IMG/VR virus record: IMGVR_UViG_3300042473_000506
Direction: 5' to 3' (one strand)
DNA: 64,000 bases
Source of the DNA: a virus
Lineage: Duplodnaviria > Heunggongvirae > Uroviricota > Caudoviricetes
Shown piece by piece: positions 406-4,792 of the stretch (its first letter is position 1; every line of letters begins with the position of its first letter). The position numbers were made by a program, and so were the translations under genes. A model generated the notes under the pieces. The model ran no database searches, was not told the DNA's origin, and saw only the letters and a list, made by a program, of their open reading frames with translations.

Positions 406-483
406 TGGTAGGACTGTCCGGATTCGAACCGGAACCTGGCGGATTAAAAGTCCGCTGTGCTAAACCGTTGACACTACAATCCC
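406..483 (-). tRNA. tRNA-Lys(TTT)
   Basis: GCGGA-CTTTTAA-TCCGC, T-arm, CCA. Confidence 0.93.
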
Positions 484-488
484 ATATA

Positions 489-565
489 TGGTCCCTAGCG
501 TCAGATTCGAACTGACACCTCATCGGTTAAGAGCCGAGTACGCTACCGTTAAACGCCAGCTAGGG
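489..565 (-). tRNA. tRNA-Lys(CTT)
   Basis: Loop CT-CTT-AA, T-arm GTCAG-TTCGAAT-CTGAC, CCA. Confidence 0.9.
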
Positions 566-631
566 TTGTTGCATATTAAATTTGTCTTTAATGTGCCAAC
601 CCTAGACCATATACGGGATCTAAGATTGACA

Positions 632-655
632 CTATCGTTTACCTGAACGTTTCAT
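632..655 (-). CDS. Mini-ORF MKRSGKR, putative regulatory leader peptide
   Basis: SD GAGGT 6 nt upstream, downstream of a perfect promoter, stop codon overlaps a 16-bp hairpin. Confidence 0.55.
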   Translation of the reverse strand: MKRSGKR

Positions 656-684
656 GTCATTACCTCTTTTGTGTTTAAGTTTCT

Positions 685-713
685 ATTATACAACCTTTTA
701 GGGTAGTTGTCAA
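685..713 (-). promoter_or_regulatory. sigma70 promoter
   Basis: TTGACA-17-TATAAT exact. Confidence 0.9.
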
Positions 714-723
714 CCGCATTGAA

Positions 724-934
724 TTTGTAAGCTGTTGCGTCCCTCATATCGCAACCATTTTCCCTTGTAATAAAGCCGGCAGGGTCAAGATACGTCACTT
801 GGGCTTTGTCCAGACGATACTCCAACTGTATTCCGATCTTCCGATCGGACGGGGATCGAACCCGCTACCTTCTACTGTTTTGGTAGTTCGAACATACCTA
901 GACAGCGTGACTCTACTTGCTGACACTTACAAAA
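724..934 (-). ncRNA. Structured ncRNA with internal T-arm; CAGCAA-family-like closing stem
   Basis: TTGTAAG/CTTACAA stem, then 3 nt + CAGCAA; GCGGG-TTCGATC-CCCGT; hairpin TCCGATC-GGAA-GATCGGA. Confidence 0.6.
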
Positions 935-2812: not shown

Positions 2813-3214
2813 TTACCACTCTGCGTATTCTGTTATTATACGAGAGTTTTTATCTTTTCTTTTTGTTGATTCTACACATCGCAGTTTAACTTCTTTTACA
2901 TCGCATATTTCTGCAATAGGAACGAGATATACTTTATCTAATTCATTTACATAGACTGCAATATAATCGATGTTACTTTCATTGTAAGAAACTCTATTTG
3001 TAAATGTGTTTTGAGATAGTTTAATTGTAACTATTCCGTTACTTTCTAACGATCTAAACTTAACTTGAATTCGTAAAAGTTTACCGTCGTGTCTATCTAA
3101 CACATAATCATAAGGACAACCTTGTGGCATTTTGCCAGTCCAATATCCTCTTTTGGCAGAAACGAGCACAAATGCTGCTTCTCCTATTTCACCTTTTTCG
3201 TTTGATATACTCAT
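2813..3214 (-). mobile_element. Free-standing PD-(D/E)XK endonuclease (group I intron-associated type), putative homing endonuclease
   Basis: GEIGE..YDYVLD..IQVK motifs; SD GGAG; TATAAATA upstream; inserted in the tRNA array. Confidence 0.75.
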
Positions 3215-3809: not shown

Positions 3810-3838
3810 ATTATACAATCTTATGTAGAATTTGTCAA
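3810..3838 (-). promoter_or_regulatory. sigma70 promoter
   Basis: TTGACA-17-TATAAT exact. Confidence 0.9.
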
Positions 3839-4763: not shown

Positions 4764-4792
4764 ATTATACAGTTATTTAGCATTGTTGTCAA
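4764..4792 (-). promoter_or_regulatory. sigma70 promoter heading the leader/tRNA array
   Basis: TTGACA-17-TATAAT exact. Confidence 0.9.

Follow-up and report, generated by a model that had tools for sequence, protein, structure and literature searches.

In leaders of the trpL, hisL, pheL, thrL and leuL type, a short frame led by a Shine-Dalgarno (SD) sequence carries regulatory codons that match the regulated pathway. The position of the ribosome chooses between overlapping alternative hairpins, with an intrinsic terminator as the final structure, and more of the product, a biosynthetic enzyme, is made when the cognate charged tRNA is scarce. In the translational attenuation of ermC and cat, a drug stalls the ribosome within a tiny leader frame; with transcription already under way, this stall rearranges the hairpins 3' of the frame and makes the SD of a protein gene accessible. 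T-box riboswitches, which act in cis as leader RNAs, sense how much of one particular tRNA is available, and the bar minigenes of phage lambda, which are not tied to a tRNA gene, act through drop-off of peptidyl-tRNA at their last sense codon. As for the maturation of tRNA itself, pairing of a leader with the 3' RCCA or with the nucleotides of the cleavage site inhibits bacterial RNase P (PMC9433436), and a designed leader switch gates RNase P processing in E. coli (PMC7897497).

Genes for tRNA are usually seen as constitutive, with regulation by promoters only. Here we describe a phage leader, the Lys leader, in front of two tRNA-Lys genes, which we regard with a probability of roughly 0.6 as a leader-peptide attenuator whose output is the folding of tRNA and its access to RNase P. 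A full-text literature search returned no description of a tRNA gene controlled by a leader peptide. If our reading is true, the principle of attenuation has been applied to a tRNA, whose acceptor stem stands in for the terminator; the leader would be a natural counterpart of the engineered RNase P riboswitch, and it would tie the tRNA supply of the phage directly to decoding stress at AAA.

A leader with overlapping pairings precedes two tRNA-Lys genes

The window (the whole stretch of 64,000 nucleotides that was analysed) belongs to a virus record of IMG/VR that is 98.6 kb long and judged ~28% complete, which corresponds to a phage of roughly 350 kb, and the same DNA is contained in lake-water metagenomes. 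At its left end, ARAGORN identified an array of at least 21 tRNA genes on the minus strand, and a promoter scan found four perfect TTGACA-17-TATAAT promoters in this array, the last of which is followed by the Lys leader. The features of the leader and of the two tRNA genes behind it are as follows.

685-713, minus strand: promoter of the sigma-70 type, TTGACA-17-TATAAT, score 12/12 (TTGACA at 713-708, TATAAT at 690-685)
662-666, minus strand: SD sequence GAGGT, 6 nt 5' of the ATG, read from the sequence
632-655, minus strand: mini-ORF ATG AAA CGT TCA GGT AAA CGA TAG (MKRSGKR, then stop), read from the sequence
593-632, minus strand: hairpin A, 5' arm 632-617, loop 616-609, 3' arm 608-593, from folding and covariation
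572-596, minus strand: spacer hairpin C, 592-587 with 580-575, flanks 596-594 and 573-571, from the fold of 608-557
560-605, minus strand: pairing B2, 605-597 (3' arm of hairpin A) with 568-560, a perfect 9-bp complement
479-619, minus strand: pairing B1, 619-605 with 493-479, 15 bp in the window
489-565, minus strand: tRNA-Lys(CUU), ARAGORN; Rfam tRNA model, 33.8 bits
406-483, minus strand: tRNA-Lys(UUU), which reads the AAA sensor codon and contributes its 5' strand to B1, ARAGORN; Rfam, 57.9 bits

A preliminary description of this DNA had already drawn attention to the promoter, the SD, the MKRSGKR frame with its two AAA codons, the 16-bp hairpin on the stop codon and the 9-nt complement, and we found every one of them in its place. 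The order in which it gave the tRNAs, tRNA-Lys(CTT) and then tRNA-Lys(TTT), was confirmed by ARAGORN and Rfam at 565-489 and 483-406.

On the minus strand, the codons of the mini-ORF are ATG at 655-653, AAA at 652-650, the AAA that we call the sensor codon at 640-638 and the stop UAG at 634-632, and the G of this stop codon (G632) is at the same time the first base of hairpin A. Hairpin A has 16 bp, four of them G-U, and an 8-nt loop (-20.9 kcal/mol, z = -5.5 against shuffled sequences). Its 3' arm contains CUAGGGUUG (605-597), which in B2 is exactly complementary to CAACCCUAG (568-560), that is, to the last 3 nt of the leader and the first 6 nt of tRNA-Lys(CUU), and B2 excludes both hairpin A and the acceptor stem of the tRNA. 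An alternative hairpin at 608-557, which uses B2 and is closed by spacer hairpin C, reaches z = -5.7. When both conformers were folded, as the preliminary description had proposed, this hairpin and hairpin A proved isoenergetic in the window, at -20.9 kcal/mol each. Spacer hairpin C is kept in relatives with other sequences, either CAUUAAA..UUUAAUG or CGUAAAA..UUACG.

The leader side of B1 runs from the top of the 5' arm of hairpin A across the loop into the first part of the 3' arm. Its target comprises G72, A73 and the CCA of tRNA-Lys(CUU), the 5-nt spacer UAUAU between the two tRNAs, and GGGAU at positions +1 to +5 of tRNA-Lys(UUU). The tRNA-Lys(CUU), which has an unusual C1-C2-C3 start and an encoded ACCA end, is nested inside the loop of this pairing. 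The minimum-energy fold computed with ViennaRNA for leader and tRNA in the window consists of the long-range pairings B1 and B2 and lacks hairpin A. Linked through shared strands, the possible pairings exclude one another in series: the 5' arm of hairpin A with its 3' arm, the 3' arm and loop with the 5' strands of the tRNAs and the CCA end, and the 5' with the 3' strands of the tRNAs.

A search with cmscan (E up to 1) returned only matches to the tRNA clan in 400-720, with no T-box and no aptamer family, and a scan for terminators found nothing between 406 and 713, nor is there a U-tract after hairpin A or after the alternative hairpin. ARAGORN reported no tmRNA in the window, and the mini-ORF precedes a complete tRNA-Lys instead of being enclosed by it.

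Several other elements of the array deserve mention in their own right. The remaining perfect 12/12 sigma-70 promoters are found on the minus strand at 2094-2122, 3810-3838 and 4764-4792, and the leaders 3' of them are dissimilar to one another. A PD-(D/E)XK endonuclease of 133 aa is encoded between tRNA genes on the minus strand at 2813-3214 (PF11645, E 7e-19). At 765-890, within an element at 724-934 (minus strand), contigs from two metatranscriptome runs reach a depth of ~900-24,000, against 5-170 nearby, which points to a stable RNA of very high abundance that contains a T-arm-like GGGTTCGATCCC; neither ARAGORN nor Rfam calls an RNA there. Further tRNA-like sequences with T-arms are present on the minus strand at 930-1015, with an acceptor-like GGGCGAU...AUCGUCC-A-CCA, and at 315-405, and neither of these is called by ARAGORN or Rfam.

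The cassette recurs in a large family of phage contigs

A first set of IMG/VR contigs was picked solely by a 16-mer from the 3' arm of hairpin A. This 16-mer is present in 68 contigs, 64 of which are true homologues of the whole region. IMG/VR was scanned with two further patterns, one on the frame and one on the hairpin and spacer, and counts from these scans hold among the matches listed. The three scans pooled gave at least 141 distinct standard cassettes on at least 141 phage contigs, and among the matches listed the contigs with a cassette are up to ~0.5 Mb long. To judge from sequence comparison, the recurrence of the whole unit in at least 141 versions with covarying pairings is more than chance.

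A strong promoter lies directly upstream in 47 of the 139 cassettes evaluable among the matches listed; the 5' context is otherwise another tRNA (18/139) or other sequence (74/139). Since only about one third of the relatives have a promoter directly upstream, the promoter does not belong to the conserved unit, which starts at the SD. At the other end, tRNA-Lys(CUU) starts with CC[C/A/U] and ends with ACCA in all 141 relatives among the matches listed. The A/U-rich spacer hairpin between hairpin A and tRNA-Lys(CUU) is duplicated in five contigs (L017, L020, L059, L072 and L083), which lengthens the leader by ~32 nt and leaves the other pairings undisturbed.

A BLAST search of INPHARED with the region of the window and the cassettes of two relatives recovered no leader, solely generic tRNA-Lys matches, and the nearest of these, in Synechococcus phage B3, has no mini-ORF upstream. 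A scan of bacterial and archaeal genomes yielded almost exclusively chance matches; the two true copies lie on short contigs of metagenome-assembled genomes (MAGs; L191 and L287) and say nothing about the host. Contigs from four metatranscriptome runs span the leader and bridge it to tRNA-Lys(CUU), with the ends of the RNA invisible and carry-over of DNA possible. Reading differences in depth or uncovered parts of these RNA-library contigs was considered and rejected, because the depths sum over relatives and DNA may be present.

At six loci, ARAGORN reports a 'tRNA-Lys' that has no leader cassette (L080:400-472, L149:7875-7948, L155:6311-6384, L058:6597-6670, L076:8298-8369 and L160:11213-11284). 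All six are preceded by a different conserved element of ~150 nt, of the form ...GGTCGCAAAAGACGACTGA...CAGCAAC...CAGCACATCGCAGTAG, and this element probably represents a separate family of non-coding RNAs or tRNA mimics.

The mini-ORF is conserved in frame and linked to lysine

In the set selected by the 16-mer, all 45 distinct versions keep the SD and ATG AAA ... AAA NNN TAG in frame. The set selected by hairpin and spacer has an in-frame ORF in 98 of 98 distinct versions and a recognisable SD in 97 of them, among the matches listed, and the one version with a weak SD was left untallied. Thus all but one of the 143 versions that were unselected on the frame have a recognisable SD (among the matches listed). 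In the 97 tallied versions of the hairpin/spacer set, again among the matches listed, 88 have AAA at codon 2 and nine have AAG, and codon n-1, two before the stop, is AAA and the stop TAG in every one. The ORFs of this set among the matches listed are 7, 8, 9 or 10 codons long (6-9 sense codons), always in frame. The core of the SD is GGAG/GAGG in 106 of 141 cassettes and AGGA/AAGG in 33, and it is separated from the ATG by 6-7 nt in 102 of the 106 GGAG/GAGG cassettes, all among the matches listed. The six-base distance from the sensor AAA to the base of hairpin A is likewise constant across the cassettes among the matches listed. Of the two AAA codons named in the preliminary description, the strictly invariant one is therefore the sensor codon at n-1, and codon 2 can be AAG.

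The remaining codons vary widely, as in MKRAKR, MKRGKL, MKLDKI, MKASAKQ, MKDTAKQ and MKVSTKQ, and 14 different codons serve as the last sense codon in the 141 cassettes among the matches listed. Since these codons are free to vary, the peptide is not the point, and a function of the peptide was rejected because it is not conserved. Codon bias does not account for the invariant AAA at n-1 either, because AAA makes up just 57% of the Lys codons in the long ORFs of the window, and TAG ends none of its 29 ORFs of at least 200 aa (window 1-64000; TAA 20, TGA 9, TAG 0).

Among the 154 matches listed for the frame pattern, a tRNA-Lys follows directly in 131 and another tRNA in none. These 131 comprise 110 with Lys(CUU) and then Lys(UUU), 14 with Lys(CUU) and no second tRNA called, and seven with Lys(UUU) first. 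Recurrent SD-led mini-ORFs before non-Lys tRNAs were not found for any of the 2,696 tRNAs in the retrieved loci. At the level of sequence, the link between cassette and lysine is absolute in these data.

Three competing pairings covary

RNAalifold applied to a MAFFT alignment of hairpin A recovered only seven pairs, as bulges misalign the arms, and anchored and alignment-free tests were used instead. In the alignment-free test, the duplex energies of cognate and non-cognate partners were compared for 97 distinct cassettes among the matches listed. Cognate partners were strongly favored for hairpin A (z -15.2), B2 (z -12.0) and B1 (z -14.2) in these cassettes, as against z between -3 and +2.5 for three control pairings of equal relatedness. 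The same test gave no covariation (z 0) for a possible 'hairpin 0', in which the SD would pair with the 5' arm of hairpin A (97 cassettes, among the matches listed).

Individual substitutions agree with this result. In hairpin A, a compensatory swap from U-A to A-U changes CUCUAGAU:GGUCUAGGG into CUCAAGAU:GGUCUUGGG, and in L160, which also has AAG at codon 2, the base of the hairpin has changed from GUGUC:GGCAC to GAGCC:GGCUC. RNAalifold finds 12 double changes at one pair of B2, a pairing in which GGGUUG:CAACCC is replaced by GGAUGG:CCAUCC. Ungapped pairs 1-13 of B1 are 85-100% canonical, with many swaps of the types A-U/U-A and G-C/G-U/U-A, and beyond pair 14 the values fall to background (140 cassettes, among the matches listed); within B1, UGGUC of the leader and GACCA of tRNA-Lys(CUU) form 5 bp that are invariant in the cassettes among the matches listed. 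The covariation that the preliminary description had asked related phages to provide is therefore present in both hairpin A and the 9-bp complement. Its proposal that this complement locks the tRNA needs amendment: B2 does covary, and the stronger and better conserved target is the 13-15-bp B1, which had been missed.

The few cassettes that lack tRNA-Lys(CUU) are informative as to what the leader addresses. In these, the same leader segment pairs directly with positions ~-12 to +5 of tRNA-Lys(UUU), at -19 to -28.5 kcal/mol. The conserved target is therefore the site at which the AAA-reading tRNA is processed at its 5' end. Taken together, sequence comparison establishes the anatomy of the leader, its conservation, the covariation of the three pairings and the fact that they exclude one another.

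Equal stability of hairpin A and its rival, as seen in the window, was rejected as a rule for the family, in which the mean advantage of hairpin A is 4.8 kcal/mol. In terms of modelled energies, this extra stability fits a default in which hairpin A forms unless its 5' arm is covered.

Predicted folding depends on the position of the ribosome

We modelled the effect of the ribosome by keeping its footprint unpaired, a stretch that begins 15 nt 5' of the first P-site base and ends 14 nt 3' of it, a size (-15/+14) assumed from general knowledge. For the nascent transcript of the window, hairpin A is the predicted minimum-energy structure when either AAA occupies the A site, and B2 takes its place with UAG in the A site as well as on the ribosome-free transcript; the energy gaps in this nascent-chain model are small, at 1-4 kcal/mol. 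In the family, the acceptor stem of tRNA-Lys(CUU) is part of the predicted minimum in the following numbers of cassettes, all among the matches listed.

No ribosome: 102/141 cassettes
Ribosome at codon 2: 124/141 cassettes
AAA(n-1) in the A site: 97/141 cassettes
Ribosome at the stop codon: 29/141 cassettes

With the ribosome at the stop codon, the 5' strand of the tRNA is predicted to pair with the leader in 91 of 141 cassettes among the matches listed, and the contrast between stall and stop is robust for footprint edges from +11 to +16. The suggestion of the preliminary description, that a ribosome at the stop codon leaves the tRNA sequestered and that stalling at AAA lets hairpin and tRNA form, thus gains support from the comparative evidence and from the fold models. 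Since the tRNA is predicted to fold even without a ribosome in 102 of the 141 cassettes, the device would work only if most transcripts are translated.

For the full precursor, the models give a different picture. The locked state B is the predicted global minimum at any position of the ribosome in 81-86 of 88 versions among the matches listed, and it is better by 9.8 kcal/mol on average, and by 17.6 kcal/mol in the window, according to the nearest-neighbour model. With B as the ground state of the full precursor, control must therefore be kinetic and co-transcriptional, or rest on the tertiary stability of the tRNA, which the model ignores, together with irreversible processing as another possible basis for the choice between states.

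A putative attenuator of tRNA maturation and its alternatives

We propose the following mechanism. A strong ribosome-binding site would direct translation of a frame of 6-9 codons, in which codon n-1 is an AAA read by tRNA-Lys(UUU). When Lys-tRNA(UUU) is plentiful, the ribosome would reach the UAG and cover the 5' arm of hairpin A, and the 3' arm thus freed would capture the 5' strands of the tRNAs and their RNase P sites, so that both tRNA-Lys are locked. When Lys-tRNA(UUU) is scarce, the ribosome would pause at the AAA, its leading edge reaching as far as the base of hairpin A; the intact hairpin would then hold the anti-tRNA segment, and both cloverleaves could fold and be processed. The product tRNA would decode the sensor codon in a direct feedback loop, which may raise phage tRNA-Lys when demand rises or when the tRNA-Lys of the host is depleted. 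Translation of the frame, stalling, the direction of control and its physiological purpose are all presumed in this scheme. The single sensor codon, in place of the runs of codons found in classical attenuators, counts against it.

The alternative that we take most seriously, unlikely as we consider it, is that B1 and B2 together form a processing scaffold and not a lock, a quasi-continuous duplex of ~23 bp that loops out tRNA-Lys(CUU) in the manner of the RNase III sites flanking rRNA, with the mini-ORF serving only to protect or unfold the leader and with hairpin A as a transient folding intermediate. The prediction of state B as thermodynamically most stable in nearly all full-length precursors among the matches listed, the rank of B1 as the best conserved pairing, and the frequent location of the cassette inside polycistronic tRNA transcripts without a promoter of its own are all in keeping with a scaffold. 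However, B1 and B2 use the 5' acceptor strands of the tRNAs and the CCA end, and cuts there would damage the tRNAs without releasing them; a scaffold also gives no role to the invariant spacing of AAA-NNN-UAG to the base of the hairpin or to the specificity for Lys, and hairpin A covaries as strongly as B1. Less probable still is a folding switch operated by protein or RNA, in which the mini-ORF is untranslated and ATGAAA, the second AAA and TAG are kept at the RNA level, as a small hairpin or for protein binding. Small hairpins with the second AAA in the loop can indeed be drawn inside the frame, and the entropies of codon positions 1, 2 and 3 (0.30, 0.63 and 0.76) lack the classic coding pattern. 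Yet almost all versions among the matches listed have their SD at the optimal spacing of 6-7 nt, the length of the frame changes solely in steps of three, codon 2 changes synonymously between AAA and AAG, and an in-frame stop falls exactly at the base of the hairpin in every version among the matches listed, all of which argues for translation.

A further alternative is that the switch acts on transcription and not on tRNA folding, by read-through into the tRNAs or by access of Rho, as in a classical attenuator with whose trpL-type leaders it shares its overall logic. We regard this as improbable, given that neither hairpin is followed by a U-tract, that the terminator scan of 406-713 was empty, and that the segments competing with hairpin A are the strands of the tRNAs themselves. 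The product of the frame could also matter in itself, whether as a basic micro-peptide (MKRxKR) or as a minigene that traps peptidyl-tRNA in the manner of lambda bar, and the many basic versions, such as MKRAKR and MKRSGKR, would suit the former. We consider this the least probable reading: MKLDKI, MKASAKQ, MKDTAKQ and MKVSTKQ share just two Lys, and the last sense codon, the target of a bar-type minigene, is the very codon that varies among 14 forms in the matches listed.

Returning to attenuation of tRNA maturation, a possible use is suggested by two defence systems of bacteria: tRNA-Lys(UUU) is cleaved by PrrC (PMC10264068), and the tRNA reading AAA is the target of the anti-phage nuclease PARIS AriB (PMC11464382). 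A role of the Lys leader in counter-defence against PrrC or PARIS is plausible. A more far-reaching proposal, to which we give slightly less than even odds, is that the Lys leader represents the first natural case of translation-controlled tRNA maturation. A one-codon sensor of 'hungry' ribosomes would keep phage tRNA-Lys(UUU) and tRNA-Lys(CUU) in an anti-acceptor lock and free them only at a shortage of Lys-tRNA(UUU), possibly late in infection or after cuts by PrrC or PARIS AriB, and would thereby provide an on-demand counter-defence that is widespread in giant freshwater phages. The cassette is self-contained at ~270 nt, and at least 141 natural variants with compensatory changes make these proposals testable in vitro and in E. 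coli.

Relation to known systems

The Lys leader resembles T-box riboswitches in being a cis-acting leader RNA that would respond to the supply of one specific tRNA. T-boxes differ in their direct binding of uncharged tRNA and in their targets, which are aminoacyl-tRNA synthetase or amino-acid genes, and the Rfam model detects no specifier loop and no T-box sequence in 400-720. With the lambda bar minigenes it has in common a very short, SD-led phage frame that interacts, or here would interact, with tRNA supply; its last sense codon is variable, however, and a tRNA-Lys gene lies downstream. What it would share with ermC and cat is the rearrangement of 3' hairpins, with transcription already under way, by a ribosome that is held up in a tiny leader frame, but the stall proposed here would be limited by tRNA instead of induced by a drug, and the output would be a tRNA and not the exposed SD of a protein gene.

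The closest parallel in overall layout is with leaders of the trpL type. Here, too, a short SD-led frame, presumably translated, carries regulatory codons that are cognate to the regulated product, namely AAA at n-1 and Lys at codon 2 ahead of a tRNA-Lys; hairpin A, B2 and B1 overlap in mutually exclusive, strand-sharing pairings, each of which covaries, and the choice among them would fall to the position of the ribosome, with more product proposed at scarcity of the cognate charged tRNA. In contrast to trpL-type leaders, the final helix is the acceptor stem of a tRNA, and no intrinsic terminator was found as a final structure in 406-713; the product under control is the decoder of the sensor codon, a tRNA in place of a biosynthetic enzyme; there is one sensor codon and not a run; and the stop codon is located at the start of region 1, not after it. 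Because the terminator is missing, the output is an acceptor stem and the product is the decoder of the sensor, we do not count the Lys leader as a member of the trpL-type attenuators.

In its presumed output, the leader is nearer to the natural anti-determinants of RNase P, in which pairing of the leader with the 3' RCCA or occlusion of the cleavage site slows the enzyme (PMC9433436). B1 pairs the leader with the CCA end and with the 5' side of the following tRNA, and by analogy it may have the same effect on RNase P; the natural anti-determinants are short local pairings without a switch, whereas the pairing of the Lys leader spans two tRNAs. The switch itself has its counterpart in the synthetic theophylline RNase P riboswitch (PMC7897497), in which a leader with two folds gates the 5' processing of a tRNA. 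That device is man-made and driven by a ligand, while the effector proposed for the Lys leader, to which the conserved SD and ORF point, is the translating ribosome.
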